Shown here: piece by piece, positions 10,896 through 32,133 of the stretch
Layout: each line of letters opens with the position of its first letter
Position numbering within the stretch: position 1 is the stretch's first letter
Origin: Pseudomonadota bacterium
Lineage (GTDB): Bacteria; Pseudomonadota; Gammaproteobacteria; Burkholderiales; SG8-39
Direction of reading: 5' to 3'
Assembly: GCA_040752005.1 (NCBI GenBank)
Contig: JBFMFX010000017.1
Span: 10,871-74,870 of the forward strand
Length of the DNA: 64,000 nucleotides
Made by a program: the position numbers and the translations under genes
The notes under the pieces: generated by a model
What the model was told of the DNA's origin: nothing
The model's input: the letters and a program-made list of their open reading frames with translations, nothing else
Database searches by the model: none

Positions 10896-10901
10896 GGCGC
10901 G

Positions 10902-10907
10902 ATTCTA
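10902..10907 (-). promoter_or_regulatory. -10-like TAGAAT 6 nt upstream of the xdhC ATG; the hexamer includes the kinase TAG stop
   Basis: Minus strand reads TAGAAT-cgcgcc-ATG, read directly. Confidence 0.3.
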
Positions 10908-12269: not shown

Positions 12270-12270
12270 G

Positions 12271-12945: not shown

Positions 12946-12951
12946 GCGCCG

Positions 12952-12957
12952 ATGATA
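12952..12957 (-). promoter_or_regulatory. -10-like TATCAT 6 nt upstream of the response-regulator GTG
   Basis: Minus strand reads TATCAT-cggcgc-GTG. Confidence 0.25.
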
Positions 12958-13076
12958 CCGCCACGTGGCGCTTGCCGATCCCGCACGCCGGCGCGCCACC
13001 ATGCCGCACGACGGGCGGTTCATCTGCCGCGCGCGCGCACGCCTGCGATCGCACCTTGGCCAGGCCGCGAAGCGCC

Positions 13077-13103
13077 AAAAAAAAAGCCCGCGCGAACGCG
13101 GGC
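13077..13103 (-). terminator. Rho-independent terminator downstream of czcA
   Basis: Read on the minus strand, the stem GCCCGCG-(ttcg)-CGCGGGC is followed by a U9 tract. On the plus strand this is A9 at 13077-13085 plus the hairpin at 13086-13103. Confidence 0.7.
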
Positions 13104-13247
13104 TCGGCAGGCGCCGGCCGGGCGGAGGAAGGAACCCGGCCAGCCCCTGCAGGGGGCCGGTCGGAAACGGCCAGGCGAGACGCAGTCTGCGCGCGCATCC
13201 TTGCAGCGCACTTGCGCGTGACTTGCGCGCGGCTGACAGCGCCTGAC

Positions 13248-16200: not shown

Positions 16201-16340
16201 ACCTGCGTGTCGGTGACGTCGGGGAACGCCTCGACTGGCAGCCGATTGAACGCCGCGATGCCCGCGCCGACGAACACGACCACGCCCAGCACGATGAACA
16301 GCGGCTGGTAGAGGGCAAAGGCGACGACGCGCCGGATCAC
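13248..16340 (-). CDS. czcA: Heavy-metal-efflux (HME) RND inner-membrane pump, CzcA/CusA family
   Basis: 1030 aa. Contains FNRLPVEAFPDVTDTQVTV and the HME-type TM4 motif MDFGIIVDGAVIVVEN. Confidence 0.93.
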   Translation of the reverse strand: MIRRVVAFALYQPLFIVLGVVVFVGAGIAAFNRLPVEAFPDVTDTQVTVISLYPGRAAEEVEKQVTIPLEVALSGLPGAVRMFVHTQFGLSFLTITFDDGVNGYFARQQVVERLREVELPPGVDSQLAPFSTAIGEIYRYRLRGEGLGPRELRTLQDWVVQRSLKQVPGVADVTSLGGLIKQYEVRPDPARMRDYRVTLAQLAQAIERGNRNAGGSYVEQGRQQYLIRGIGLFQGPEDIANVVVTERGGTPILVRDIARVAVGAVPRQGVAGEDDEDDVVTGVVLMRRGENPSEVLGRVRERVAALNAGGLPAGVRIEPIYDRTWLIGRTLTTVFTNLLEGALLVSAVLWLFLGNLRAAAIVALTMPLALLATFLGLTWIGIPANLLSLGAMDFGIIVDGAVIVVENVFRKLSEASHGHKVLAESRRKQIILDAAVEVGRPTLFSMLIIIAAHIPIFTLTRHEGRIFAPMAYSVVSALAGALVLSLTLVPLLCAVTLRRNLPERENVLVRAAGRAYEPALRWALAHRRAVLGLALAALAGSLALVPRLGTEFLPELNEGALWVNVTLPTSVSVSEAQEMVARIRAAIRKFPEVRKVNSRVGRPEDGTDPKLINMAEFLVDLKPETEWTRGVDKAGLLREMEAEIVKLPGVVPTFSQPIRDNVLESISQIDGQIVIKVFGEDLERLRELALGVLRQVQEVPGVARAFVDRLGELPQIQVRVDRARAARYGLNVADIQDVIETALGGKQVTQIWEGEQRFGVAVRLEEAERTLTGMQELLVATPNGAYVPLSEVASLRTVGGMMNIARENGRRVLAVGVFIRGRDMGSVVSDMQAKVRRNVPLPEGYAITWSGEFENQERAMARLAVIVPISILIIFLLLFDAFKSFRNSLLIVANIPFSAIGGILALWLTGIYLSVSAAIGFIALFGQAVLNGVVMVALFNELRHRGAAPEEAAIQGARTRLRTVLMTALLASLGLLPMALSTGIGAETQKPLAVVVIGGLASATLLVLFVLPVLYVMMAGWRGRRRAPAG

Positions 16341-16341
16341 C

Positions 16342-17475
16342 TCAGTCCTTCGCCGCGAGCAGGCGCTCGAGGAGCAGGTTGCCGTCGACCACCACGCGCT
16401 CGTGCAAGGCCACGCCCTCCAGCACGACTTGATGCGCGTCTATCGTCGGTCCGAGGCGCACTCGCCGTCGTTCGAAGCGGCCGTCGCCTCGCTCGACGAA
16501 CACGTAGTGCTGCTCGCCGCGCAGGTACACCGCACGCGCCGGAACCAGCAACCCTCCGGCCGCCGGCACGCGCAGCTCGGCGGTGACGAACATTTCCGCC
16601 TTGGCGCGCCGCTCCCGGTTCTCGACCGCGCCGCGCACCTTGACCGTGCGCGTCTGCGGATCCACGAAATCGGCGATGGCCGTGATCCGCCCGGCGAGGG
16701 TCCGGTCGCCGAGGAGCGTCGCGCGCAGCTGCACCTCGGCGCCGACCCGGACGGCGCCGACATCGGCTTCGGCGATGTCGAGCAAAAACCACAGCCGTCC
16801 CGGGTCCGAGATCACGAACAGGCCCTTTTCCGGCTGTGCGTCGGCGCGCAGCTCCTGCCCCGGGTTGAGATTGCGCTCGACCACCACGCCGGCGATCGGA
16901 GCGGCGAGTGCAAAGCGCTGATCCACCGTCGCGGCCGCGGCGCCGTACAGGCGCAGGCGCGCTACCTGGCGCTCGCGCTCGGCGACGGCACGGGCGGCCT
17001 CCGTGCGCGCCGCCAGCAGGTCCTTCGCCGGCGCGACGCCCGCCGCGTGCAGCTCCTCGATGCGCGCAAGGTTCGTGCGCGCGAGTTCCTCGTCCACTTT
17101 CGCCTTGCGCGCCTCGGCCTGCGCCGCGCCCAGCTCGGGCGAGGCGATCACGGCAAGCGTCTGTCCGGCGCGCACCGCGTCGCCCGCGCGTACCGCGACC
17201 GCGACGACCCGCCCGCCGAGCGGGCTGAACACGCGCACGGTGCGGTCCTCGTCCCATACCAGACGCCCGGGAAAGCGCAGCACCGACTCGCGCCACGGCT
17301 CGATTGCCGCGACCGCGAGCGACGCGATCTGGGGGCTCTCCGGTGCGAAGACGATCGTCTGGCCTTCGACGCGCGGCTGCGGCGCAGACGTTTGCGGCGC
17401 CGAGTCGCCGCAGGCCGCCGGACCGAGCGCGGCGAGCGCCGCCCAGAGCACCGCAAGCGCGCGCGCCGGATTCAT
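16342..17475 (-). CDS. czcB: RND efflux periplasmic adaptor (membrane fusion protein)
   Basis: Lipobox-like N-terminus (LGPAACG), coiled-coil hairpin and beta-barrel regions. The start overlaps the upstream OMF stop (ATGA). Confidence 0.88.
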   Translation of the reverse strand: MNPARALAVLWAALAALGPAACGDSAPQTSAPQPRVEGQTIVFAPESPQIASLAVAAIEPWRESVLRFPGRLVWDEDRTVRVFSPLGGRVVAVAVRAGDAVRAGQTLAVIASPELGAAQAEARKAKVDEELARTNLARIEELHAAGVAPAKDLLAARTEAARAVAERERQVARLRLYGAAAATVDQRFALAAPIAGVVVERNLNPGQELRADAQPEKGLFVISDPGRLWFLLDIAEADVGAVRVGAEVQLRATLLGDRTLAGRITAIADFVDPQTRTVKVRGAVENRERRAKAEMFVTAELRVPAAGGLLVPARAVYLRGEQHYVFVERGDGRFERRRVRLGPTIDAHQVVLEGVALHERVVVDGNLLLERLLAAKD

Positions 17476-18731
17476 CGCCGTTCCTCCAGCGTCTGGACCG
17501 TGGCGCTCGCCGCGCGCCAGGCGGCGAGCGCCTTCGCGTAGTCGGCGCGCGCGGCGAGCGCCTCCAGGCGGACCGCGCGCAGCGTACGGCGCGCATCGAG
17601 CACCTCGAGCACCGAAACCGCGCCGCGCCGGAACGCGAACTCGGCGGCCTGCGCGGCTCGCTCGGCCGCACCGAGGAGCGCCGTGTCGTAGCGCTCCAGG
17701 CGTTCGCCGGCCGAGGCGAGCTCGGCGGCGGCGCGGCCGATGTCGTTGTGCGCCACCGCCTGCGCCTTCTCGAGGGCATCGAGCGCGGCGTAGCGTTCGA
17801 CCTCGGCGCGCTGAATGTCGCCGGAGAAGTCGTAGCCGGTGAAAAGCGGAAAAGAGATGCCGAAGCCGACCGAGTAGGAAGACGGCGCCGGAAACCGGTA
17901 CAGCTGCGCGCCCACCGTGATATCCCGCGTCTGCAGGCTGCGCGCGAGATCCCGCAGTTTCTCGGCGGCGGCAAGGCGCGCCCGGGCAGCGGCCACGTCA
18001 GGCCGAGACTCGATCGCGCGCTCGAGCGTGGCCCGCTCGGGCGGCACACGCGCCGGCCAGTCGTCGGCGGCGCGCAGCTCGCCGGCCGAGCGCTCCTCGC
18101 CGATCAGGTACGCGAGCGCGAAGCGTGCCCGGTCGAGCTCGGCGCGGGCGGCGCGCACCTCGTTGCGCGCCCGCTCGTGATCCACCTGCACCTTGGCGAC
18201 ATCGGCCTCGGCCAGATCGCCGGCCTTGAGCCGTGCTTGCGCCGCGGCGAGCGTCTGCCCGAAGAGCTGCGCGAGGTCCTCCAGCAGAAAGAGCTTGTCC
18301 TGGGCCTGCTTGAGCTCGTAATAGGCGACACGAAGTTGCGCAAGCTGCACGCGCAGCATCTCCAGCGACTCGCTGCGCGCGGCGCGTTCGAGCTCCTCGG
18401 CCGCCTGCATGCGCAGCTCGCGCTTGTTGCCGCGCTCGAGCGGCTGGTCAATGCGCAGCGTCGCGTCCAGCCTCTGGTCGCGCAGCGGTCCCGGTCCGAT
18501 CGCATTCGGCGCCACCGACACCCCGGAGGTGGCGAGCGACACCGTCGGGTTCGGCCGCGCGGCGGCGATCAGGCGCTGCGCCCCGGCCGCCTCGACCGCG
18601 CGGCGCGCGGCTGCCAGCTCGCGATTGCGCTCGAGCAGCAGCCGCTCGGCCTCGGCGAGGGTCAGATCGCGCGCGGGCGATGCGCTGGCGGCGGCAGTGG
18701 CGAGAAAAAAAACAAGGCAGCGCGCCTTCAT
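17472..18731 (-). CDS. czcC: TolC-family outer-membrane efflux protein
   Basis: The start is trimmed to [20 protein letters not shown], which is a signal peptide. Two OEP repeats follow. Confidence 0.85.
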
Positions 18732-18808
18732 CGGGGCGCCGAAGGCTACCGGCGCCGGTTGTCGCGCGCCTTGCGGCAAGCTTTCGGCATGCTGAAGCGC
18801 CGCGGCGT

Positions 18809-18852
18809 TTGCGCGGCGCAACATTGCCGGAGCGATGCCGCTTGGCTAGGAT
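18809..18852 (+). promoter_or_regulatory. Candidate coxSLM promoter: 13-bp palindrome TTGCGCgGCGCAA abutting TTGCCG-17 nt-TAGGAT
   Basis: Palindrome at 18809-18821, -35-like at 18824-18829, -10-like at 18847-18852, and coxS SD GAGGAGG at about 18891. All read from the sequence; function is inferred. Confidence 0.3.
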
Positions 18853-18901: not shown

Positions 18902-19381
18902 ATGGCGGTCAGAGTTTCCATGAAGGTGAACGGCAAACCGGTATCCGGCGAGATGGAGGAGCGCACGCTTCTGGTCACCTTCATTCGCGAGCATCTGCGG
19001 CTCACCGGAACGCATGTCGGTTGCGACACCGCGCAGTGCGGGGCGTGCACCGTGATCATGAACGGCCGCGCGGTGAAGTCGTGCTCGATCCTTGCGATGC
19101 AGGCCGAGGGCGCGGACATCACCACCATCGAGGGCGTGGCCAGGCCCGACGGAACGCTGCATCCGATGCAGGCGGCCTTCAAGGAGCACCACGGCCTGCA
19201 GTGCGGCTTCTGCACGCCGGGAATGGTGATGAACGCGATTGACTTCGCCAGCCGCAACCCCAACCCCACCGAGCAGGAGATCCGCGAGGCGCTGGAAGGG
19301 AACCTCTGCCGCTGCACCGGCTATCACAACATCGTGAAGTCCATCGCCGCCGGAGCGCGGGCGATGGCCGCCGCGAAATGA
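18902..19381 (+). CDS. coxS: Molybdo-hydroxylase small subunit, [2Fe-2S]-binding (CoxS-like)
   Basis: [11 protein letters not shown] and CGFCTPGMV...CRCTGY are the cysteine clusters. SD GAGGAGG lies upstream of ATG 18902. The start is trimmed from ORF 18680..19381. Confidence 0.92.
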
Positions 19382-19391
19382 GGAGGACGCC

Positions 19392-21737
<2,346 letters not shown>

Positions 21738-21752
21738 GAAGGAGAACCGGAC

Positions 21753-22550
21753 ATGCGTGCATTCCACTACCACCGCCCGGCGAGCCTCGCCGAGGCTGCT
21801 TCGCTCGCCGCCAGAGGGGAAGCGAAACTGCTGGCCGGCGGCCAGTCGCTCGTGCAGGCGATGAAGCTGCGGCTCGCCTCGCCCTCGGACGTCGTGGACC
21901 TGGGGGGCCTCAGGGACCTCGGCGGAATCAAGTCCGACGGCAAGACGCTCACCATCGGCGCGATGACGCGCCACGCCGAAGTCGCCGATTCGGCCGAAGT
22001 GAAGAAGGCGATCCCGGCCCTCGCGGCGCTCGCTGGCATGATCGGTGACCGCCAGGTCCGGGCGATGGGCACCCTGGGCGGCTCGATCGCCAACAACGAT
22101 CCCGCGGCCGACTATCCGGCGGCGGTGCTCGGCCTCAATGCGGTCGTGCATACCAACAAGGGCCGGCACGAGGCCGACAAGTTCTTCAAGGGCCTGTACG
22201 AAACCGCGCTTGCGCCCGGCGAGATCATCACCTCGGTCGCCTTCCAGATTCCGAAACGCGCCGCCTACATGAAGTTCAAGAACCCGGCTTCGCGCTTCGC
22301 CATCGTCGGCGTGTTCGTCGCCGATTTCGGCGGCGGCAACGTGCGCGTGGCGGTGACCGGCGCCGGCCCGTGCGTGTTCCGCCAGACGGACATGGAGAAG
22401 GCGCTGGCGGCGAAGTTCGAGCCGGCCTCGGTCGCCAACGTCAAGGTGAGCCCTGCCGGACTGAACAGCGACCTGCACGCGAGCGCAGAGTATCGGGCGC
22501 ACCTCGTCACCGTCATGGCGAAGCGCGCGGTGGAGGCGGCGCTGAAGTAG
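21753..22550 (+). CDS. coxM: Molybdo-hydroxylase FAD-binding medium subunit (CoxM-like)
   Basis: LLAGGQSLVQAMKLR and GTLGGSIANNDPAADYP are the PCMH-type FAD-binding motifs. Confidence 0.92.
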   Translation: MRAFHYHRPASLAEAASLAARGEAKLLAGGQSLVQAMKLRLASPSDVVDLGGLRDLGGIKSDGKTLTIGAMTRHAEVADSAEVKKAIPALAALAGMIGDRQVRAMGTLGGSIANNDPAADYPAAVLGLNAVVHTNKGRHEADKFFKGLYETALAPGEIITSVAFQIPKRAAYMKFKNPASRFAIVGVFVADFGGGNVRVAVTGAGPCVFRQTDMEKALAAKFEPASVANVKVSPAGLNSDLHASAEYRAHLVTVMAKRAVEAALK

Positions 22551-22583
22551 AGAAGGTTGTTCGGGAGGGGGAGCGGGAGGAAA

Positions 22584-22609
22584 GCCCGCGCGCTGCGCGG
22601 GCTTTTTTT
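22584..22609 (+). terminator. Rho-independent terminator after coxM
   Basis: Stem GCCCGCG-(cgctg)-CGCGGGC followed by T7 at 22603-22609. Confidence 0.8.
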
Positions 22610-22614
22610 CGCCG

Positions 22615-23001
22615 CTACGTCACTCTCCGGAACGTGAACTCCCACCGGCCCGGCCGTAGATGGAGCGTGTCGCCGTCGGCGCGGAAAAAATGAAACAGCT
22701 CGCCTTCCTCGGCGACGTCGTTCCAGTTGCGCCGCCGGCTGATCACGAAGGCTTCGCCGACGACCCGGTAGCGCCCGGAGAAGGCGAAGGCTTCACGGAA
22801 CGCCGCGAGGATCTCGCCCACGTCCTTCGCGCCCGGTTCATGGCCATCGAGCAGCGCCATGAACCGGCGCGCCGGGGTAAACAGGATGCAGGCGCGTGGC
22901 AGCCGGCCCGGCGCCCGCAGGCCGTCATGTCTCGCCTCGGCGATCTCCCAGACACCGACCAGCGCGTCCCCGCCCCGTGGCGGCTCGACTTGACGTTCCA
23001 T
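22615..23001 (-). CDS. Lipocalin-like domain protein (hypothetical)
   Basis: The start is trimmed to MERQVEPP. LVGVWEI...ILFTPARRFMALL...FSGRYRVVGEAFV...GDTLHLR fits the lipocalin-like (PF13924-type) pattern as I recall it. Confidence 0.55.
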   Translation of the reverse strand: MERQVEPPRGGDALVGVWEIAEARHDGLRAPGRLPRACILFTPARRFMALLDGHEPGAKDVGEILAAFREAFAFSGRYRVVGEAFVISRRRNWNDVAEEGELFHFFRADGDTLHLRPGRWEFTFRRVT

Positions 23002-23166
23002 TTCCCTTTGCTGGCCGAGAACCACCGCTTCGCTCCTTCGGCACCGGTCGGATGATCGAGCAGAGTGCTCCCGGCGGTTCCGCCCGTCAGCCAGTTGCGT
23101 CACGCCGGCGCCGTGCAATCTGCACGCCGGAGCAAACGGAGAGTGGCGCCTGCCAGCCAAATGCCC

Positions 23167-23183
23167 GAAAATGTGGCATTTTC
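23167..23183. promoter_or_regulatory. Inverted repeat GAAAATG-tgg-CATTTTC upstream of coxD; overlaps a weak GG-N10-GC (sigma-54-like) spacing
   Basis: The repeat has 7-bp perfect arms, read directly. TGGCAT-N5-cAGC resembles TGGCAC-N5-TTGC only partly. Confidence 0.25.
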
Positions 23184-23200
23184 GCAGCGCGCAAATCCTC

Positions 23201-24118
23201 ATGCCCAGCCCCCGAGCGTTCCCCAGATCCATCGAAGAGACCCTGCAGATCCTCGGCGCCGCCGATTACGTCGCCGACCGCAGCCTCGCCACCGCGGTGT
23301 ACCTCGCTCTCGCCATGCGGCGGCCGCTCTTCCTCGAAGGCGAAGCCGGCGTCGGCAAGACCGAGATCGCCAAGGTGCTCGCCGCGAGCCTCGGACGCGA
23401 GCTGATCCGCCTGCAATGCTACGAGGGCCTGGACATCGCGCAGGCGGCCTACGAGTGGAACTACTCGCGCCAGATGATCGAGATCCGGCTCGCCGAGGCC
23501 GCCGGGGAAAAATCGCGCGAGAGGCTCGCGCAGGACATCTACGCCGAGCGGTTCCTCGTCAAGCGGCCGCTGGCGCGCGCGCTGGAGGGAAAGCCGGGCG
23601 CCACCCCGGTATTGCTCATTGACGAGCTGGACCGCACCGACGAGCCGTTCGAGGCGTATCTGCTGGAGGTGCTCTCCGACTGGCAGATCACGATCCCGGA
23701 GCTCGGCACCCTGCGCGCTGCCGAGCCGCCGGTGGTGGTGATCACCTCGAACCGCACGCGCGAGATCCACGACGCGGTCAAGCGCCGCTGCTTCTACTAC
23801 TGGGTGGACTATCCGGACGCCGAACGCGAGCTGGAGATATTGCGGCGCAAGGCACCCGGCGCCGCCGCCGCGCTCTCGCGCGAGGTCGTCGAGTTCGTGC
23901 AGCGTCTGCGCAGGATGGATCTGTTCAAGGTGCCGGGAGTGGCGGAGACGATAGACTGGGCGAACTGCCTGGTCGCGCTCGACCGCGTCGCGCTCGACCC
24001 GGAGACGGTGAGCAACACGCTCGGGGTGCTGCTCAAGTACCGGGACGACATCGAACGCCTCTCCGGCGCGGAGGCCGAGCGGCTCGTGAGCGAGGCGAAG
24101 TCCGCCGTCGCCGCCTGA
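23201..24118 (+). CDS. coxD: MoxR-type AAA+ ATPase (CoxD-like)
   Basis: LFLEGEAGVGKTEIAK is Walker A and VLLIDELDR is Walker B, followed by VVITSNRTREIHDAVKRRC. The start could instead be ATG 23171. Confidence 0.85.
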   Translation: MPSPRAFPRSIEETLQILGAADYVADRSLATAVYLALAMRRPLFLEGEAGVGKTEIAKVLAASLGRELIRLQCYEGLDIAQAAYEWNYSRQMIEIRLAEAAGEKSRERLAQDIYAERFLVKRPLARALEGKPGATPVLLIDELDRTDEPFEAYLLEVLSDWQITIPELGTLRAAEPPVVVITSNRTREIHDAVKRRCFYYWVDYPDAERELEILRRKAPGAAAALSREVVEFVQRLRRMDLFKVPGVAETIDWANCLVALDRVALDPETVSNTLGVLLKYRDDIERLSGAEAERLVSEAKSAVAA

Positions 24119-24124
24119 CACCGG

Positions 24125-25453
24125 ATGAGCGCGGTTTCACTTCTGCGCCGCCTGCTCGGGCGCCCGCGATCCGGCATCGCGCCACGCACGCGCCAGCTGG
24201 TGCAACTGTGCCAGGCGCTGCTGGGCGAGGGCGGCGAGGTCTCGGGCATGGCCACCGCCCGCCAGGCCTTGGCCGCCTACCACGCGCTCGATGAGCGGGA
24301 GCGCGAACAGTTCTTCGACGTCCTCAGCGAGGACTTTTCGCCTTCGCCGGAGGCCGTCGGCAAGGCGGCCGACGCCTACCGCGACGACCCGACGCCGCAC
24401 AACCTGATCCGGCTGCAGCAGGTGGTCGAGCCGCCGCGGCAGGAGCTTTTCCGGCGCCTGAACATGGCCGCCGGCGGCACCGCCGCGCTGGTGGAGATGC
24501 GCCGGCTGGTGCTGCGCGGGCTCGCCGCGCATCCGGCATGGAAGGTGATTGACGCCGATCTGCTGCACCTGTTCCGCTCCTGGTTCAACCGCGGCTTCCT
24601 GCGGCTCGAGCGCATCGACTGGCACACGCCGGCGATCGTGCTCGAGAAGCTGATCCGGTACGAAGCGGTGCATGCGATTCAGGGATGGCGCGACCTGCGG
24701 CGGCGGCTGGAGGCGGACCGGCGCTGCTTCGCGTTCTTTCACCCGCAGCTGCCGGAAGAGCCGATCATCTTCATCGAGGTGGCGCTCACGCGGGGGATGA
24801 GCGCACAGGTCCAGCCGCTGCTCGACGTCGGCGCGCCGGTCTTCCCGCCCGAGCAGGCCGACTGCGCCATGTTCTACTCCATCACCAACTGCCAGGAAGG
24901 CCTGCGCGGCATATCCTTCGGCAACCTGCTCATCAAGCAGGTCGTCGAAGACCTGAAGCGCGAGTTCCCGCACCTGAAGACGTTTGCGACCCTCTCGCCG
25001 ATTCCCGGCTTTCGCAAATGGCTCGCGGAGCCCGATACGCGGGTGCGGCTCGCCATGGGTCGAGACGGCGAAGCGCGCATCGCGCTGCTCGCGCAGATCC
25101 ACACGCCGGGCTGGCATCTGCACGAGGTGCCGGAATCGCTGCAGAAGATGCTGATGCGCCTGTGCGCCTGGTATCTGCTGCACGCCAAGCGCGGCACGGA
25201 ACCCTACGACGCGGTGGCGCGTTTCCACCTGGAGAACGGTGCGGCGCTGGAGCGCCTCAACTGGCTGAGCGACACCTCGGAGGCGGGGATGGCGCGCTCG
25301 GCCGGCCTGATGGTCAATTACGTCTACCGGCTGGAGGACGTGGAGCGCAATCACCAGCGCTATTTCGCCGCGCACGAGGTGGTCGCCTCGCGCGCTGTCG
25401 AGAAGCTGGCGCGCAAATGCGTGCTGGCGCTGGACAAGCCGGGCGAGGGCTGA
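24125..25453 (+). CDS. Malonyl-CoA decarboxylase family protein
   Basis: CFAFFHPQLPEEPIIFIEVALT...MFYSITNCQEGLRGISFGNLLIKQVVEDLKREFPHLKTFATLSPIPGFRKWL closely parallels the conserved MCD catalytic region. Confidence 0.88.
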   Translation: MSAVSLLRRLLGRPRSGIAPRTRQLVQLCQALLGEGGEVSGMATARQALAAYHALDEREREQFFDVLSEDFSPSPEAVGKAADAYRDDPTPHNLIRLQQVVEPPRQELFRRLNMAAGGTAALVEMRRLVLRGLAAHPAWKVIDADLLHLFRSWFNRGFLRLERIDWHTPAIVLEKLIRYEAVHAIQGWRDLRRRLEADRRCFAFFHPQLPEEPIIFIEVALTRGMSAQVQPLLDVGAPVFPPEQADCAMFYSITNCQEGLRGISFGNLLIKQVVEDLKREFPHLKTFATLSPIPGFRKWLAEPDTRVRLAMGRDGEARIALLAQIHTPGWHLHEVPESLQKMLMRLCAWYLLHAKRGTEPYDAVARFHLENGAALERLNWLSDTSEAGMARSAGLMVNYVYRLEDVERNHQRYFAAHEVVASRAVEKLARKCVLALDKPGEG

Positions 25454-25454
25454 C

Positions 25455-26660
25455 ATGATCGCGCCGCTCGATACGCCCGCTCCCCAGGGCAGGCTCGCCG
25501 AGAACGTGATGCACTTCGCGCGCCTGCTGCGCGCCGCGGGCCTGCGCATCGGCCCCGATCGCGTGCTCGACTGCGTGCAGGCGCTGGCGCTCGCCGGCTG
25601 CAAGTGCCGCGAGGACTGGTACTGGACGATGTCCGCGGTGCTGCTCTCGCGCGAGGAACAGCGCCCGATCTTCGATCAGGCGTTCCGCATCTTCTGGCGC
25701 GACCCGCGACTCACCGAGCGCATGATGCAGGCGCTTCTGCCCAAGGCCTACGGCCGCGTGGACAAACCCAAGGAGCAGAGCCAGCGGCTCACGGACGCGC
25801 TCTTCGGCCAGAAGAAGCCCGAGCCGCGTGAGGAGCGCAAGGTGGAGCTCGACGCGCGCCTCACCTTTTCCTCGCGCGAGGTGCTGCAGCGCATGGACTT
25901 CGACACCATGTCGGCCGCCGAGCTGGCGGAGGCGAAGAAAATGCTGGCCGAGCTGCGCCTGCCGCTGCCGATGGTGCGCACGCGGCGCCTTGCGCCCGCG
26001 GCGCGCGGCGAGCGCGTGCACATGCGCGCCACCCTGCGCCAGAGCCTGCGCGAAGGCGGCGACATCATCGCGCTCGTGCGCGCGGCGCCGGTCGAAGTGC
26101 ACCCGCCGCTGGTGGTGCTGTGCGACATTTCCGGTTCGATGAACCCGTACGCGCGCATGTTCCTGCATTTCCTGCACGCGATCACCAACGACCGCGACCG
26201 CGTCAGCGTGTTCGTGTTCGGCACGCGCCTGACCAACATCACGCGGCAGTTGCGGCATCGCGACGTGGACGTGGCGATGGCGCGCGTCGCCGACGTGATC
26301 AAGGACTGGTCCGGGGGCACCCGCATCGGCGCCTGCCTGCGCGAGTTCAACTGGCGCTGGTCGCGGCGCGTGCTCGGCCAGAACGCGTGCGTGCTGCTCG
26401 TCTCCGACGGCCTGGACCGCGAGGCGGGCGAAGGGCTCGCTGAGGAAATGGAGCGGCTGCACAAGTCGTGCCGGGATCTCATCTGGCTCAACCCTCTGCT
26501 GCGCTACGAGAAATTCGAGGCGCGCCCCGCCGGCGTGCGCGCGATGCTGCCGCACGTGGACCGGTTCCTGCCCGTGCACAATCTGAAGAGCCTCGTGGAC
26601 CTCGCGCACGCGCTGGCGCGGCCCGAGCCTCGGCACCTGGAGAAACGCGCATGGAGATGA
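25455..26660 (+). CDS. coxE: VWA-domain protein (CoxE-like)
   Basis: The CoxE-type N-region is ENVMHFARLLRAAGLRIGPDR. The C-terminal VWA has a MIDAS-like VVLCDISGSM motif. Confidence 0.88.
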   Translation: MIAPLDTPAPQGRLAENVMHFARLLRAAGLRIGPDRVLDCVQALALAGCKCREDWYWTMSAVLLSREEQRPIFDQAFRIFWRDPRLTERMMQALLPKAYGRVDKPKEQSQRLTDALFGQKKPEPREERKVELDARLTFSSREVLQRMDFDTMSAAELAEAKKMLAELRLPLPMVRTRRLAPAARGERVHMRATLRQSLREGGDIIALVRAAPVEVHPPLVVLCDISGSMNPYARMFLHFLHAITNDRDRVSVFVFGTRLTNITRQLRHRDVDVAMARVADVIKDWSGGTRIGACLREFNWRWSRRVLGQNACVLLVSDGLDREAGEGLAEEMERLHKSCRDLIWLNPLLRYEKFEARPAGVRAMLPHVDRFLPVHNLKSLVDLAHALARPEPRHLEKRAWR

Positions 26661-27253
26661 CCGGCGAGCAGCTCATTCCGGCCTCGCAGGAGGAAACCTG
26701 GAAGGCGCTCAACGACACCGAGTTCCTGAAGCAGTGCGTGCCCGGCTGCGAGGCGATCGAGCCGGCCGGCGACAACACCTACACGGTGCAGATGACGGCG
26801 CGCGTCGGCCCGGTGAGCGCGAAGTTCAAGGGCAAGCTGACGCTGTCGGACCTCGATCCGCCGCGCGCGTACTCGATCGCCTTCGAGGGCCAGGGCGGCG
26901 TGGCGGGCTTCGCCCGCGGCAGCGCCCGGGTGCACCTCGTACCCGACGGCGACCGCACGAAGCTCACCTACACGGTGAAGGCGAGTGTCGGCGGCAAGCT
27001 GGCGCAGATCGGCTCGCGGCTGGTGGACGCGGCGGCGCAGAAAGTGGCGAACGACTTCTTCACCGCGTTCAACGACAAGCTCGCCGAGCGCCGGCCGCAG
27101 GCGGCCGCCGTGGCGGACGAATATCACGACCCGCACTTCCCCGAGCCGGTGCCGCGCGACCCGGAGCTGCCCGACGTGTCGGATGCCACGCTGGCGTTTT
27201 TCGCCGCCGGCATGCTCGTCGTCGTCGCGGTGGCGCTGCTGACGCTGCTCTGA
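26651..27253 (+). CDS. coxG: SRPBCC-fold CoxG-like protein with C-terminal membrane anchor
   Basis: MEMTGEQLIPASQEETWKALNDTEFLKQCVPGCE...VGPVSAKFKG is followed by a terminal hydrophobic helix (FFAAGMLVVVAVALLTLL). It overlaps coxE by 10 nt. Confidence 0.85.
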   Translation: MEMTGEQLIPASQEETWKALNDTEFLKQCVPGCEAIEPAGDNTYTVQMTARVGPVSAKFKGKLTLSDLDPPRAYSIAFEGQGGVAGFARGSARVHLVPDGDRTKLTYTVKASVGGKLAQIGSRLVDAAAQKVANDFFTAFNDKLAERRPQAAAVADEYHDPHFPEPVPRDPELPDVSDATLAFFAAGMLVVVAVALLTLL

Positions 27254-27948
27254 TGAGCACAGCGCTCGTCTTTCGTGACGACGCCTACGCACGCGCCTGC
27301 GAGGCCACCGTCGTCTCGGTGCGCGAGAACATCGTCGTGCTCGACCGCACCGTGTTCTATCCGCTCGGCGGCGGGCAGCCGGGCGACACCGGCCGCATCG
27401 GCGGCCTGCGCGTGACCGACACGCGCAAGGGCGAAGACGACACGGTGCTGCACATCGTCGAGCCGGGCGCGCCGCTGCCCGAGCCCGGCTCGCGCGTGCT
27501 CGCCGAGATTGACTGGGAGCGGCGCCACCGCCTGATGCGCTTTCATACCGCGCTGCACCTGCTCGGGGCGGTGGTGAAGGCTCCGGTCACCGGCGGACGC
27601 ATCGCCGAGGACAAGGCACATCTCGATTTCGACATCGAGATGGAGCGGCTCGTGAAGGACGAGATCGAGGAAGGCGTCAACGCGCTGGTGCGTGCGGGGC
27701 ACGCGACGCGGGCAAGCTGGATCACCGACGCCGAGCTCGATGCGCGGCCCGAACTCGTGCGCACGATGTCGGTCGCGCCGCCGCGCGGCGCCGGGCGCGT
27801 GCGCCTTGTCGAAATTCCGGGGGTGGACCTCCAGGCCTGCGGCGGCACTCATGTGGCCAACACGCGCGAGATCGGCCCGATCACGGTTGTGCGCATTCGT
27901 TCCGAAGGCAGGCGCAACAAGCGCGTCACCATCGCGTTCGCGGAATAG
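27253..27948 (+). CDS. alaX: AlaX-type alanyl-tRNA editing protein (Ser-tRNA(Ala) deacylase family)
   Basis: TVFYPLGGGQPGDTG, the HTALHLL zinc motif and CGGTHV are present. The ATG shares one nt with the coxG stop (TGATG). Confidence 0.85.
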   Translation: MSTALVFRDDAYARACEATVVSVRENIVVLDRTVFYPLGGGQPGDTGRIGGLRVTDTRKGEDDTVLHIVEPGAPLPEPGSRVLAEIDWERRHRLMRFHTALHLLGAVVKAPVTGGRIAEDKAHLDFDIEMERLVKDEIEEGVNALVRAGHATRASWITDAELDARPELVRTMSVAPPRGAGRVRLVEIPGVDLQACGGTHVANTREIGPITVVRIRSEGRRNKRVTIAFAE

Positions 27949-28056: not shown

Positions 28057-28236
28057 GTGCAGACCGCGCAGCGGGCGCGCGCCGGGGAAATCGTCCTCTC
28101 GGACGCGGTGATGGGCGCGCTTTCGGTCGAAAACCTCGACCTCGACGCCGAGCCGCTGCCGCCGCTCGAGCTTGCGCGCCGCCAGCCGCTGCGGATCTAC
28201 GGCGTGCTGCTCGAGAGCCGGCTCGACTTCACGTAG
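28057..28236 (+). CDS. Small hypothetical protein (about 59 aa from GTG)
   Basis: Strong GC3 periodicity from about 28057 to TAG 28236 (...EIVLSDAVMGALSVENLDLDAEPLPPLELARRQPLRIYGVLLESRLDFT). No family recognised, and the start is uncertain. Confidence 0.3.
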   Translation: MQTAQRARAGEIVLSDAVMGALSVENLDLDAEPLPPLELARRQPLRIYGVLLESRLDFT

Positions 28237-28852
28237 CGGCAGCCTCGCGGATCGCCGTGGCGAGCTCGCCGGGCGGCACGGCGCCGGACAGCCCCGAGCG
28301 GCGGTCGAATATGAAGGTGGGCACCGCCGAGATGCCGAAACCGCGCACCAGCTCCTCCTGCTCGGCCACCCGCACCGGATCGGCCGCCTCCGGCCAGCGG
28401 CGCACGCCGCAGCGCGCGGCGATTCTTGCCAGCACCGCCGCATCGCCGATGTCCCGCGCTTCCTCGAAGTAGGCGCGGAACAGCGCCTCCACCACCGGGC
28501 TCGCGCAGCCCTGCGCCTGCGCGACGTCTATCAGGCAGTGCGCGGCGGCGGTGTTCGGCGTGCGCGCGATGCGCTCGAAGGCGAACGCGATGCCTTCGCC
28601 CGCGCCCTCGGCGGCGACGCGCGCATCCAGCGCCCGCGCACGCTCGGGCGAACCGAACTTGGCGCGCCGGTAGTCTGCGCGCGCCATCCCCTCGGCCGGC
28701 ATGCCCGGGTTGAGCTGGAACGGAAGCCAGGCGATTTCAGCCTCGACTTCACCCTTCAGCAGCGCGAGCGCCTTCTCCAGCCGCCGCTTGCCGATGAAGC
28801 ACCACGGGCAGACGACATCGGAGGCGACCTCGATGCGCAGCCGCCCGGCCAT
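28229..28852 (-). CDS. DsbA/FrnE-family thiol oxidoreductase
   Basis: IEVASDVVCPWCFIGKRRLE carries the CPWC active site, and the rest fits a DsbA-like fold. Confidence 0.88.
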   Translation of the reverse strand: MAGRLRIEVASDVVCPWCFIGKRRLEKALALLKGEVEAEIAWLPFQLNPGMPAEGMARADYRRAKFGSPERARALDARVAAEGAGEGIAFAFERIARTPNTAAAHCLIDVAQAQGCASPVVEALFRAYFEEARDIGDAAVLARIAARCGVRRWPEAADPVRVAEQEELVRGFGISAVPTFIFDRRSGLSGAVPPGELATAIREAAAT

Positions 28853-28853
28853 G

Positions 28854-29393
28854 TCAGCGCCGCCCGGACGCGCCCGGGATGGTCCACAGGTACACGGTGC
28901 GGCCGTTCACCTCCAGCTTCTTTTCCGGCTTCCAGTCCCCCATGTCGAACTGGTGCGAGACGATGCGGGTACCGGGCTTGAGCTCCTTGAGCAGCCGCGG
29001 CCGCAGCTTCAGGTTGAGATCCGGCAGGAGGTAGAGCGTGATCACCGTTGCCTCCTTCCAGTTCGCCTGGAAGAGGTCCTCGTTGCGGAATTCGACCAGT
29101 TTCGTCACGCCCGCCTTGCGGGCGTTCTCGGTCGCTTCCTTGATCCGGTCAGGGTCTATGTCGATCCCCACCGCGCGCACGCCGTAACGGCGCGCGGCGG
29201 TGATCGGGATGCGCCCGTCGCCCGAACCGAGGTCGTAGAGCACGTCGCCTTTCCTGACACCGGCAAGGCACAGCATGTCGTCCACCACCTCCTGCGGCGT
29301 CGGCACGAAGATGACGTCGGGCGCGCGCGCCGGCTGCGCGGCAAGCGGCGGGGCGAGGATGACAAGAACGGCGATCGCAATGGCACGCAGCAT
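28854..29393 (-). CDS. Class I SAM-dependent methyltransferase with N-terminal signal/anchor sequence
   Basis: MLRAIAIAVLVILAPPLAAQPA is followed by VLYDLGSGDGRIPITAA (motif I). SD GAGGAGG lies upstream. The start is trimmed from ORF 28854..31256. Confidence 0.8.
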   Translation of the reverse strand: MLRAIAIAVLVILAPPLAAQPARAPDVIFVPTPQEVVDDMLCLAGVRKGDVLYDLGSGDGRIPITAARRYGVRAVGIDIDPDRIKEATENARKAGVTKLVEFRNEDLFQANWKEATVITLYLLPDLNLKLRPRLLKELKPGTRIVSHQFDMGDWKPEKKLEVNGRTVYLWTIPGASGRR

Positions 29394-29410
29394 CCGGTGT
29401 GACCTCCTCT

Positions 29411-30808
29411 CTAGTGGCCTGCGATGGTCATGCGCTCGATCAGCATGGAGCCGCAACGGTAGGCGCCGCGCACCACCTCGTCGGAGCCGATCGCCACCAC
29501 GCCGCGGAACATGTCCTTGAGGTTTCCGGCGACCGTGATTTCCTCGACCGGATGCACGATCTCGCCGTCCTCGACCCAGTAGCCGGCCGCGCCGCGCGAG
29601 TAGTCTCCGGTGACCAGATTGATGCCGTGGCCGAGCAGCTCGGTGACCAGGAGTCCCCGCCCGAGCTTTTTCAGCATGCCGCGCAGGTCCGGGCCGTCGG
29701 CGATCGCGACCAGATTGTGCGGGCCGCCGGCGTTGCCGGTGCTTTTCATGCCGAGCTTGCGCGCGGAATACGTGCCGAGGAAATAGCCGCGCAGCTCGCC
29801 TTTTTCCACCACCGCGCGCGGCTGCGTCGCGACGCCCTCCTCGTCGTAGGGAGCGCTGGCGAGGCCCTGCGGTTCGTGCGGGCGTTCCTCGATGGTGACG
29901 TTCGGCGCGAACACCCGCTGCCCGAGCGCGTCGGCGAGAAACGACGCCTTGCGGTAGAGGTTTGTGCCGCTTGCGGCGCTGGCGAACGCCGCCAGCAGTC
30001 CGGTGGCCACCGGCGCCTCGAACAGGACCGGCGCCTGGCAGGTCGCGATCTTGCGCGCCCCCAGGCGCGCGAGCGCCCGCTCCCCGGCGTAGCGCCCGAG
30101 CGCCTCCGGGTCGGCGAGCCGCGCCGGGGCGCGCGCGGCGCTGTACCAGTCGTCGCGCTGCATCAGTCCGCCGTCCTCTGCGATGACCGCGAGGGACAGG
30201 CTGTGGCGCGAGCTGGGAAAGCCGTGCATGAAGCCGAGGCTGTTGGCGAGCACGAACTGGCCGTGCTGCGCCGAGACCATCGCGCCCTCCGAATTGCGGA
30301 TCTTCGGCGAGAGCGCGAACGCGGCGCGCTCGATGCGGCGCGCGAGGCGGATCGCCTCGCCGGTTCCGATCGACCACGGATGGAAAAGATCGAGGTCCCG
30401 CGGCGCGCGCGCCAGGGTGTCGGGCTCCGGCGGCCCGGCGCAGTCGTCCACCGCCGTGCGGCGCGCGATCGCGAGCGCCGCCTCCACGGTGCGCTCGATC
30501 GCCGCGGCGGAAAAGTCCGAGGTGCTGGCGTGGCCGCGGCGCGCCGCCGGCCGCTCGCCGAGATAGACCGTGACGCCGATCATCTTGTCGCGATGGTGCT
30601 CGATCGTCTCCACTTCGCCCATGCGCACCGTGACCGAAAGACCGTAGCCCTCGGACACCTCGCACTCGCAGGCGGAAGCGCCACCGCGGCGCGCAGAATC
30701 GAGCACGCGCTCGGCAAGCGCGCGCAGTTGCGCATCGGTATGGCTGAAGCGCACCCCGCCCGCCGCAGGCCGGGCGGGGCGCCGGGAAACGGACGGCACC
30801 ACGCTCAT
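29411..30808 (-). CDS. pmbA: Metalloprotease PmbA (TldE)
   Basis: 465 aa. The PmbA/TldD family pattern runs throughout (EGYGLSVTVRMGEVETIEH...GDYSRGAAGYWVEDGEI). Confidence 0.93.
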   Translation of the reverse strand: MSVVPSVSRRPARPAAGGVRFSHTDAQLRALAERVLDSARRGGASACECEVSEGYGLSVTVRMGEVETIEHHRDKMIGVTVYLGERPAARRGHASTSDFSAAAIERTVEAALAIARRTAVDDCAGPPEPDTLARAPRDLDLFHPWSIGTGEAIRLARRIERAAFALSPKIRNSEGAMVSAQHGQFVLANSLGFMHGFPSSRHSLSLAVIAEDGGLMQRDDWYSAARAPARLADPEALGRYAGERALARLGARKIATCQAPVLFEAPVATGLLAAFASAASGTNLYRKASFLADALGQRVFAPNVTIEERPHEPQGLASAPYDEEGVATQPRAVVEKGELRGYFLGTYSARKLGMKSTGNAGGPHNLVAIADGPDLRGMLKKLGRGLLVTELLGHGINLVTGDYSRGAAGYWVEDGEIVHPVEEITVAGNLKDMFRGVVAIGSDEVVRGAYRCGSMLIERMTIAGH

Positions 30809-30815
30809 CGCGCGC

Positions 30816-30822
30816 TATCATA
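30816..30822. promoter_or_regulatory. Back-to-back -10-like elements (TATCAT on plus, TATGAT on minus) in the 22-bp pmbA/darP intergenic region
   Basis: The plus strand reads TATCAT-9 nt-ATG(darP). The minus strand reads TATGAT-8 nt-ATG(pmbA). Confidence 0.35.
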
Positions 30823-30830
30823 ACAGCGCG

Positions 30831-31316
30831 ATGCAGCCCGAATTCCCCAGCAAGACGCAGCGCAAGCGCGCGATGACGGAGCTGCAGGCGCTCGGTGCGG
30901 CGCTGCTCGAGCTGCCTCCTGCGCGCGTGCAGGCGCTCGCGCTGCCCGAGCCGCTCGCCGAGGCGCTCGCCGAGGCGCGCCGCATCGCCAGCCGCGAGGC
31001 GCGCCGCAGACAGATCCAGTTCATCGGCCGGCTGATGCGCGCGGTGGACCCGGAGCCGATCCGCGCGGCGCTCGCCGAGGCCGAAGGCCGCTCGGCGGCG
31101 GCGCGGGCGCGCCAGCGCCAGCTCGAGCGCTGGCGCGAACGCCTGATCGCCGATGACGCCGCGCTCACCGAATTCGCTCGCGCCCACCCGGCGGCCGAGC
31201 TTCAGGCGCTGCGCGCGGCGATCCGCAACGCGCGCAAGGAGATCGCCGGCGGTCATCCGCCGCGCGCACAGCGCGCGCTTTATCGCCTCATCCGGGAAGC
31301 GGTCGGCGAGTCGTGA
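30831..31316 (+). CDS. darP: Ribosome-associated protein DarP/YjgA (DUF615)
   Basis: SKTQRKRAMTELQALGAALLELP...RRRQIQFIGRLMR is present. The gene is divergent from pmbA, as in E. coli. Confidence 0.88.
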   Translation: MQPEFPSKTQRKRAMTELQALGAALLELPPARVQALALPEPLAEALAEARRIASREARRRQIQFIGRLMRAVDPEPIRAALAEAEGRSAAARARQRQLERWRERLIADDAALTEFARAHPAAELQALRAAIRNARKEIAGGHPPRAQRALYRLIREAVGES

Positions 31317-31546
31317 TCGAGACCGAGTTCCTCCGCCGGATCCGCATCACGCTCGAGCCGGCGCGCGAGCTGGGGCACGGGCCGCTCGGCCGGCGCCGCG
31401 TCATCGGCATCACCGGCGGCGAATTCGAGGGCCCGCGCTTCTCGGGCCGGGTGCTCGCGGGCGGAGCCGACTGGCAGCTTGTGCGCACCGACGGCGTGGC
31501 GTACCTGAATGCGCGCGACATCCAGGATTTCTGCCTCGTGCGATGA
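31313..31546 (+). pseudogene. Truncated DUF3237-family ORF (N-terminal half only)
   Basis: GRRRVIGITGGEFEGPRFSGRVLAGGADWQLVRTDGVAYLNAR matches the first half of the roughly 150-aa DUF3237 proteins. The ORF then ends after 77 aa, exactly where mog starts. Confidence 0.5.
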
Positions 31547-32133
31547 GCGGGGAGCTTCGCGTCGGACTGGTATCGGTGAGCGACCGCGCCTCGCGCGGCG
31601 TGTATCGCGACGAGGGGCTGCCGGCGCTGAAGGACTGGCTCGGCCGGGCGATCCGCTCGCCGGCGGTGCGTTATGAGGAACGGCTGATTCCGGACGAGCA
31701 GTCGCTCATCGAGGCCGCGCTGGTCGAGCTGGTGGATGCGAGAGGCTGCCACCTCGTGCTCACCACCGGCGGCACCGGACCCGCGCCGCGCGACGTCACG
31801 CCCGAGGCGACCCTCGCGGTCGCCGACAAGGTGATGCCGGGATTCGGCGAGCAGATGCGCCGCATCAGCCTGGAGTTCGTGCCGACCGCGATCCTGTCGC
31901 GCCAGGTCGCCGTGATCCGCAAGGGCTGCCTGATCGTCAACCTGCCGGGTCAGCCCAAGTCCATCCGTGAGACGCTTGAAGGTCTCAAGGACGCGAGCGG
32001 CAAGCCGATCGTTCCGGGCATCTTCGCCGCCATCCCCTACTGCATCGACCTGATCGGCGGCCCCTACGTCGAAACCGACGAAGCGGTGATCAAGGCATTT
32101 CGCCCGAAGTCGGCCGTGCGGCCGAAGGCATAG
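31543..32133 (+). CDS. mog: Molybdopterin adenylyltransferase MogA
   Basis: LRVGLVSVSDRASRGVYRDEG...LVLTTGGTGPAPRDVTPEAT is present. The start is trimmed from ORF 31153..32133, with an ATGA overlap to the upstream ORF. Confidence 0.9.
   Translation: MSGELRVGLVSVSDRASRGVYRDEGLPALKDWLGRAIRSPAVRYEERLIPDEQSLIEAALVELVDARGCHLVLTTGGTGPAPRDVTPEATLAVADKVMPGFGEQMRRISLEFVPTAILSRQVAVIRKGCLIVNLPGQPKSIRETLEGLKDASGKPIVPGIFAAIPYCIDLIGGPYVETDEAVIKAFRPKSAVRPKA

Follow-up and report, generated by a model that had tools for sequence, protein, structure and literature searches.

A malonyl-CoA decarboxylase gene at the MoxR/VWA junction of form-II cox accessory operons in uncultured Burkholderiales

Introduction

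Why should a gene for malonyl-coenzyme A (CoA) decarboxylase (MCD) lie between the gene of a MoxR-type ATPase and that of its VWA partner, which are direct neighbours in the cox clusters of Ralstonia, Azospirillum and Oligotropha? The question is raised by a stretch of 64,000 nucleotides (nt), hereafter the window, from a Pseudomonadota bacterium of the Burkholderiales lineage SG8-39 (assembly GCA_040752005.1, contig JBFMFX010000017.1, positions 10,871 to 74,870 of the forward strand), where an MCD gene breaks this adjacency within the accessory operon of a molybdenum hydroxylase. All parts of the locus belong to known families; new, compared with the cox clusters retrieved, are the MCD at the ATPase/VWA junction and an AlaX-type gene after coxG. 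An earlier note, made on this DNA from its letters alone, knew of no described role for an MCD in this position, and indeed the arrangement was not found described: a full-text search for literature joining malonyl-CoA decarboxylase with MoxR returned nothing, and of the 71 papers retrieved for MCD in combination with coxD, coxE, coxG or carbon monoxide dehydrogenase, the 20 ranked best do not mention MCD.

The answer favoured here, to which we give an even chance of being right, is that MCD is an independent housekeeping enzyme which has become fixed among the accessory genes and shares their expression, and that MoxR, VWA and CoxG serve the form-II hydroxylase encoded nearby. MCD would then probably take no part in maturing the hydroxylase, nor be served by the ATPase as a client, and would, as we infer, be mechanistically independent.

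Gene content and junctions of the operon

Window genes were established by open reading frame (ORF) listing and translation, followed by Pfam and NCBIfam profile searches, and junctions were read off the sequence, which has a G+C content of about 70%. Five co-oriented genes, whose identities as claimed by the earlier note are borne out by their Pfam and NCBIfam matches, occupy positions 23201-27948:

23201-24118, plus strand: CoxD-like MoxR AAA+ ATPase (Pfam AAA_5, E 4.5e-11, also AAA)
24125-25453, plus strand: MCD (Pfam MCD_N and MCD, E 1.6e-103)
25455-26660, plus strand: CoxE-like VWA protein (Pfam VWA_CoxE, PF05762, E 3e-68, 230 bits)
26651-27253, plus strand: CoxG, SRPBCC fold (Pfam COXG, PF06240, E 8e-32, 110 bits)
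27253-27948, plus strand: free-standing AlaX-type tRNA(Ala) editing protein (Pfam tRNA_SAD and the C-terminal part of tRNA-synt_2c)

All four junctions agree exactly with those of the note, with a 6-nt gap between the moxR and MCD genes (TGA-CACCGG-ATG), a 1-nt gap between MCD and vwa (TGA-C-ATG), a 10-nt overlap of vwa and coxG (26651-26660; ATGGAGATGA) and a 1-nt overlap of coxG and alaX (TGATG). Gene calls and junctions together uphold the description of the locus as a cox accessory operon with an MCD in its midst and an AlaX gene added to it. The same products (MoxR of 305, MCD of 442 and VWA of 401 amino acids) were obtained where the genes of an identical metagenome contig had been called independently. 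The G+C content of third codon positions (GC3) is typical of coding sequence and varies little among the five genes (0.88-0.95), as in coxSLM, and as the value for MCD, 0.90, equals that of its neighbours, MCD is no compositionally foreign recent arrival and points to long residence.

Inside the five-gene block, promoter-like sites (1 against 0.4 expected) and terminator-like sites (6 against 5.0 expected) occur at chance level, and no convincing terminator was found 3' of alaX (fold z = -0.41). The five genes would form one operon, presumably co-transcribed from a promoter region of its own located 3' of the coxM terminator, and its junctions would be compatible with translational coupling.

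Conservation and variation of the gene order

To what extent the arrangement is shared was addressed by a scan of one genome per GTDB species and by a metagenome scan seeded on divergent members, each of which provided at least 80 loci; these were annotated by tblastn with the window proteins and then classified, and the counts below refer to the loci listed. Clade A denotes the MCDs that share 56% identity or more with that of the window. Direct context look-ups recovered MoxR-MCD-VWA-CoxG at 95%, 77% and 74% MCD identity, with AlaX in some cases only. Among clade-A loci, at least 24 carry MoxR-MCD-VWA and 11 are truncated by the contig end in a manner consistent with this order, 3 show coxM-MCD(-MoxR), 5 show an opposite-strand xdhC next to MCD-CoxG, 19 have at least 1 kb of flank and neither a cox nor a mat neighbour, and 21 are uninformative due to short flanks. 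Wherever an organism is named, the cox-linked loci stem from metagenome-assembled genomes (MAGs) of uncultured Burkholderiales/Betaproteobacteria.

Within the MCD-bearing cox loci, identity to the window proteins extends down to about 59% for MCD, 68% for MoxR and 54% for VWA, and the junctions are kept tight, with a median distance of 7 nt between moxR and MCD (n=34) and of -4 nt between MCD and vwa (n=31). In 20 of 22 loci, vwa and coxG overlap by the same 10 nt, which suggests that translation of the CoxE-like protein and of CoxG is strictly coupled. More variable is the link to the structural genes: the coxM/moxR spacing ranges from 9 nt to 4.3 kb, with unrelated genes in the wide spacers; some relatives have coxSLM joined to the accessory genes in a contiguous block (coxM-moxR gap of 9-132 nt), others, the window included, have the two as separate units.

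The gene-neighbourhood survey proposed in the earlier note thus finds MCD between MoxR and VWA in many relatives, and the alternative it had named, a strain-specific insertion with its own promoter, fails on this recurrence and on the lack of any significant internal promoter or terminator. A recent accident or an assembly artefact devoid of biological meaning has next to no probability, as the same order is present in independent JGI, ENA, NCBI and Logan assemblies, the base composition of MCD is that of the neighbouring genes, its junctions are conserved, and nothing is strain-specific but an insertion of some 370 bp with an orphan ORF and an efflux block of about 8 kb, both treated below.

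Two further orders place MCD beside cox genes. Loci L022 (769-5465), L091 and L092 read coxL-coxM-MCD-MoxR, followed by ccmA and ccmB and with no VWA gene, and the 67-nt MCD-moxR spacer of the L022-type variant contains the promoter-like sequence GGCTGGCATAAT. In L027 (6731-12653), L119, L026, L115 and L135, an opposite-strand xdhC adjoins MCD-CoxG, with no coxSLM, moxR or vwa at the locus; MCD-CoxG is followed in L027 and L119 by an IorA/IorB-like two-subunit molybdenum hydroxylase, the large subunit of which has a signal of the twin-arginine translocation (Tat) type, and in L026 by a glutathione S-transferase (GST) and a Vut_1 transporter. In L015, L006 and L105, MoxR-MCD has no coxSLM close by (none within 7-9 kb for the latter two). 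Remnants of VWA were searched for in the VWA-less loci L015, L022, L026 and L027, and none were detected even at E up to 1. The 19 solo clade-A MCDs, 56-64% identical to the window protein, include MAGs of Acidobacteriota, Vicinamibacterales and Terriglobia.

The maturation proteins and the form-II hydroxylase

The accessory proteins are recognizable both by motif and by descent. In translation, MoxR carries Walker A (GEAGVGKT) and Walker B (LLIDELD) motifs and shares 48% identity over 283 amino acids with CoxD of Oligotropha (Afipia) carboxidovorans OM5, and 66% and 57% with the MoxR proteins of Azospirillum and Ralstonia, respectively; VWA carries the metal ion-dependent adhesion site (MIDAS) motif DISGS (DxSxS) at about residues 219-223 and is 32% identical to OM5 CoxE, 57% to the Azospirillum and 45% to the Ralstonia VWA protein; and CoxG is 50% identical to OM5 CoxG and 51% to CoxG of cultured form-II clusters. 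Being clear orthologues of OM5 CoxD, CoxE and CoxG, the three bear out the expectation that MoxR-VWA-SRPBCC constitutes a molybdenum hydroxylase maturation set, which in OM5 reportedly acts in active-site maturation and membrane docking. The C-terminus of CoxG (27188-27250) is a hydrophobic stretch of about 22 residues, ATLAFFAAGMLVVVAVALLTLL, that follows a charged proline-rich linker; it looks like a tail anchor and would fit membrane docking. The names MadB and MadC were considered for MoxR and VWA and dismissed, as the NCBIfam matches lie below cutoff (MadB_ATPase, 270 bits against 475), and literature searches on these names found nothing relevant.

The putative client of this set, for which MoxR, VWA and the tail-anchored CoxG would provide maturation and membrane docking, is encoded upstream in the form-II order S-L-M (18902-22550):

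18902-19381, plus strand: coxS-like [2Fe-2S] small subunit (Pfam Fer2_2 and Fer2)
19392-21737, plus strand: coxL-like large subunit, form II, with molybdopterin domains (Pfam Ald_Xan_dh_C, MoCoBD_1, MoCoBD_2)
21753-22550, plus strand: coxM-like medium subunit binding flavin adenine dinucleotide (FAD) (Pfam FAD_binding_5 and CO_deh_flav_C)

CoxL has the motif AYRGAGR in place of AYRCSFR, shares 67% identity with the form-II large subunit of Azospirillum and 41% with the form-I CoxL of OM5, and scores 707 bits against the NCBIfam model of true CO dehydrogenase, CO_dehy_Mo_lg, which has a cutoff of 991.

Comparison with annotated clusters delimits what is particular to the window. The form-II clusters of the Ralstonia solanacearum megaplasmid (coxS-L-M-moxR-vwa-coxG-xdhC) and of Azospirillum sp. 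B510 plasmid pAB510c (coxSLM-moxR-vwa-xdhC) share with it the S-L-M order, the AYRGAGR motif in CoxL, orthologous accessory proteins and accessory genes that overlap or nearly touch. Unlike in the window, however, moxR and vwa are directly adjacent in both, 4-7 nt apart and with no MCD, whereas here the 1.3-kb MCD gene separates them and AlaX follows coxG; also, xdhC is downstream in these two clusters but divergent and upstream in the window lineage. The characterised form-I Mo/Cu CO dehydrogenase cluster coxMSLDEFG on OM5 plasmid pHCG3 has the CoxD/CoxE/CoxG set in common with the window, with moxR (coxD) and vwa (coxE) again directly adjacent, but differs in the AYRCSFR motif, the order M-S-L, a coxF between coxE and coxG and the lack of MCD and AlaX.

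MoxR-VWA systems with a carboxylase or decarboxylase partner exist, namely RavA-ViaA with the lysine decarboxylase LdcI and CbbQ-CbbO with Rubisco, and in operons of the MoxR-DUF58-VWA (Bat) type a third gene lies between the ATPase and VWA genes. By analogy, the locus would share with RavA-ViaA and CbbQ-CbbO the general logic of a MoxR ATPase and a VWA adaptor that act on a specific client, although MCD has no sequence relationship to LdcI, Rubisco or DUF58 and the MoxR and VWA proteins here are of the CoxD/CoxE type. On the model of CbbQ/CbbO acting on Rubisco and of RavA binding LdcI, MoxR and VWA might thus remodel, activate or assemble MCD besides or instead of the hydroxylase. We consider this very unlikely. 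It would account for the position of MCD exactly between both partners, with gaps of a few nt, in at least 24 loci, for the adjacency of MoxR and MCD that survives rearrangement to MCD-MoxR in L022 and L091, and for MoxR-MCD pairs that lack a nearby coxSLM. On the other hand, neither MoxR nor VWA accompanies the clade-A MCD in 24 informative loci, the accessory proteins are clear orthologues of the hydroxylase set at the identities to OM5 given above, and MCDs are in general active as stand-alone oligomers without chaperones (PMC3701320). A fusion of MCD with MoxR or VWA was looked for among the longer MCD homologues and not found, the two candidates (P0130 and P0139) being fusions to a family-III CoA-transferase. 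The suggestion of the earlier note that the chaperone pair serves the decarboxylase therefore gains no positive support, close relatives of the enzyme persisting where MoxR and VWA are lacking.

The malonyl-CoA decarboxylase and its relatives

The window MCD has the two-domain architecture (PF17408 and PF05292) of the MLYCD/MatA family, an N-terminal helical and a C-terminal GNAT-like catalytic domain, with matches far above the cutoffs for MCD_N (residues 71-154, 85.7 bits) and MCD (residues 157-401, 346 bits), and aligns end to end with the structures PDB 4KSA (E 5.9e-124), 4KSF and 4KS9 and with human MCD. The catalytic Ser/His dyad, Ser329/His423 in human MCD and Ser312/His389 in the Rhodopseudomonas palustris enzyme RpMCD (PMC3701320), is intact as S291 (LSPIPGF) and H368 (RFHLENGA), both invariant in an alignment of 47 diverse MCDs, and the spacing of 77 residues between them equals that of RpMCD. 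By its sequence, MCD is catalytically intact, the predicted reaction being the conversion of malonyl-CoA to acetyl-CoA and CO2.

The best known setting of this family is the matABC operon of Rhizobium and relatives, which comprises a GntR regulator, the MCD gene matA, the malonyl-CoA synthetase gene matB and the carrier gene matC; MatA has the same dyad, and its identity to the MCD of the window is 48-50%. Distant MCDs (less than 56% identical) are represented by 66 informative loci, of which 30 adjoin matB, 8 adjoin a family-III CoA-transferase and none is linked to cox genes; this setting is the canonical one for malonate utilisation, as confirmed in an annotated Rhizobium plasmid. In the window and in every clade-A locus listed, no MatB, MatC or CoA-transferase was found near MCD, and therefore the window MCD is not part of a malonate-uptake module. 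Thereby a distinct MCD clade is defined that is linked neither to matB nor to a CoA-transferase. In other lineages, P0130 (887 amino acids) and P0139 (692 amino acids) are natural fusions of a family-III CoA-transferase and an MCD, and provide a Rosetta-stone link for a transferase-dependent route from malonate to acetyl-CoA.

Some members of the xanthine oxidase family, such as 4-hydroxybenzoyl-CoA reductase and 2-furoyl-CoA dehydrogenase, act on CoA thioesters. The form-II CoxSLM route might accordingly make or use malonyl-CoA or a related acyl-CoA, for example by oxidation of a 3-oxo or aldehyde intermediate with malonyl-CoA, and then acetyl-CoA, as its end, and MCD would be the enzyme downstream or upstream. 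Besides the precedent of these relatives, such a pathway link could draw on the association of MCD and cox genes in three gene orders and over deep divergence, on the contiguity of coxSLM-moxR-MCD-vwa-coxG in many loci, on L027 and L119, where MCD-CoxG precedes another, IorAB-like molybdenum hydroxylase, and on the activity and substrate of form-II enzymes being unresolved (PMC13240472). Yet the clusters share no conserved catabolic gene, be it for a CoA ligase, a CoA-transferase, a transporter or another function, so that a complete malonate or acyl-CoA pathway is not encoded locally; the linkage to coxSLM is variable, with spacers of up to 4.3 kb and no coxSLM within 7-9 kb in L006 and L105; the orthologous form-II clusters of Ralstonia and Azospirillum do without MCD; and clade-A MCDs stand alone in other phyla. 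The link is thus unlikely, and the acyl-CoA-linked substrate or cofactor that the earlier note had envisaged for the form-II enzyme finds no positive support, neither an acyl-CoA ligase nor a CoA-transferase being conserved.

Evolutionary history

Trees were built by neighbour-joining without support values and are read with caution. In the MoxR and VWA trees, all MCD-associated sequences form one group, with Azospirillum and Ralstonia outside and OM5 as the outgroup, and the coxM-MCD-MoxR variants nest inside the MCD-associated group. As the MCD-associated MoxR and VWA proteins form one group that excludes their MCD-free relatives, the data would fit an MCD that was inserted between coxD and coxE once, in an ancestor of the lineage, with local rearrangements and deletions afterwards. 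The MCD trees show a coherent main clade that is cox-linked, a second clade in which genes linked to cox stand together with solo ones, and a third, largely of Acidobacteriota-type MAGs, that consists of solo genes only. Solo MCDs nest among cox-linked ones.

AlaX and the flanking regions

The AlaX-type protein carries the zinc-binding motifs HxxxH (HTALH) and CxxxH (CGGTH). Against the NCBIfam model AlaXM it scores 224 bits with an equivalog cutoff of 300, hence 'AlaX-type' is the safe wording. AlaX follows coxG in 11 related loci (median CoxG/AlaX distance -4 nt, n=11) and is absent from L006, L009, L012 and L020, where CoxG is followed by a GST-like gene or by nothing. As AlaX is present in part of the main clade only, it is considered a later, dispensable 3' addition in one sub-lineage. 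Further downstream (28229-32133), synteny is kept in relatives for genes encoding a DsbA-like protein, an S-adenosylmethionine (SAM) methyltransferase, PmbA/TldD, DarP and a MoCF_biosynth (Mog/MoaB-like) protein, whereby the cox accessory operon retains a molybdopterin biosynthesis gene at a distance of no more than about 4 kb.

Upstream of the operon and around coxSLM, the following features are found:

9870-10904, minus strand: XdhC/CoxI-family chaperone gene for molybdenum cofactor (Moco) insertion (Pfam XdhC_C and XdhC_CoxI)
22581-22609, plus strand: intrinsic-terminator-like hairpin with a T7 run directly 3' of coxM, AAAGCCCGCGC-GCT-GCGCGGGCTTTTTTT
22615-23025, minus strand: orphan ORF of 136 amino acids, inside a strain-group-specific insertion of about 370 bp after the coxM terminator
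23143-23172, plus strand: conserved promoter-like element, GTGGCGCC..GCCAAATGCCCGAAAAT, about 30 nt upstream of the moxR start, with a single occurrence in the window

The hairpin 3' of coxM is supported by the RNA fold of 22551-22625 (-37.4 kcal/mol, z = -2.5) and kept in L001, L008 and L116; it escaped a consensus terminator scan, as some of the T run is taken up into the stem.

The element upstream of moxR, with the consensus TGGCG-N8/9-CAAATGCC(C/G)GAAAAT, recurs in L001, L004, L008, L111, L116, L127, L129, L133, L138 and other loci with a coxM-moxR spacer, and a second sub-lineage has GCAAAGGTATAAAAT or GGCTGGCATAAT in its place. Probably it is the promoter or operator of the accessory operon, either a sigma-70-like -35/-10 pair or an operator. 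Its reading as a sigma-54 promoter (TGGCG..GCC) was rejected, the -12 GC being displaced by one base in most loci. A search for riboswitches or other RNA elements upstream of moxR or coxS found no Rfam family, the sole hits being two sub-threshold Leu-leader matches that fall on the terminator hairpin. Upstream of moxR, L004 (5567-8684) and L006 (1-7995) have arrays of 3-7 tandem genes for ABC_sub_bind (PF04392) solute-binding proteins, encoded on the opposite strand.

That an ORF on the opposite strand separates coxM from moxR had been stated before and is correct, but its label as lipocalin-like is unsupported, as the orphan ORF has no Pfam or NCBIfam match up to E 0.1 and no PDB sequence match. 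The insertion which contains it is absent from the 95%-identical relative L001. Its homologues among 5.8 billion proteins amount to two clusters (100% and 84% identical), both of which keep the reading frame; its GC3 is 0.78 (for a longer version, 22615-23232) compared with about 0.9 in the neighbouring genes, and the AlphaFold model, with a predicted local distance difference test (pLDDT) score of 43, is too poor for a fold search. The orphan ORF may be a real small gene.

xdhC is divergently adjacent to coxS in L001 (4024-5193) and in L020. The two genes are separated in the window by about 8 kb (10905-18824), a block which is absent at that place in the 95%-identical L001 and encodes a sensor kinase, a probable response regulator, an AcrB/CzcA-type resistance-nodulation-division (RND) pump, a CusB/HlyD adaptor and an outer-membrane factor; this module for metal or drug efflux is an insertion at the level of the strain.

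Discussion

How, then, would an independent enzyme come to be held between an ATPase and its adaptor? In the favoured reading, an MCD of the 'stand-alone' clade would have entered the coxD/coxE junction once and been inherited since, with AlaX added later, and what unites the genes would be shared expression, a housekeeping MCD being switched on together with the hydroxylase machinery. A conceivable rationale is that malonyl-CoA is recycled to acetyl-CoA under conditions in which the hydroxylase is induced, for example to drain it once lipid synthesis comes to a halt, and AlaX might likewise provide tRNA(Ala) proofreading under these conditions.

The independence of MCD from MoxR, VWA and CoxSLM is argued because close relatives stand alone in other phyla, because five loci keep MCD together with XdhC and CoxG in the absence of coxSLM, moxR and vwa, and because bacterial MCDs are ordinary self-sufficient enzymes; conversely, MoxR and VWA are independent of MCD because orthologous pairs are MCD-free in Ralstonia, Azospirillum and Oligotropha.

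Several observations weigh against the favoured reading. MCD is found beside cox accessory genes in three orders, MoxR-MCD-VWA-CoxG, coxM-MCD-MoxR and XdhC divergent from MCD-CoxG, which is less readily expected from pure hitch-hiking than from selection for linkage. Tight junctions are kept across deep divergence, at about 68% identity for MoxR and 54% for VWA, and, as none of the 66 informative loci outside clade A is cox-linked, the association is clade-specific and stable rather than random. Furthermore, loci that lack coxSLM, MoxR or VWA may carry those genes elsewhere in the genome, and the neighbour-joining trees have no support values. A true functional coupling, be it by an acyl-CoA on the form-II pathway or by MCD as a client or partner of the CoxD/CoxE-type machine, is doubtful, though to be taken seriously.

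Bacteria of soil and sea very commonly possess form-II CoxL enzymes, and MoxR-VWA pairs of the CoxD/CoxE type are understood only for the Mo/Cu CO dehydrogenase. An MCD fixed at the ATPase/VWA junction across an uncultured soil lineage offers a handle on both the form-II substrate and the function of MoxR-VWA, and either way corrects the idea of a one-off insertion. If pathway coupling were true, it would be the first genomic clue to the substrate of the form-II 'CO dehydrogenase-like' enzymes; if MCD were a client, the chaperone class of the CoxD/CoxE type would extend beyond metal-cluster maturation; and if the genes are only co-regulated, the locus would show which housekeeping functions, malonyl-CoA recycling and tRNA(Ala) proofreading, are induced along with the hydroxylase.

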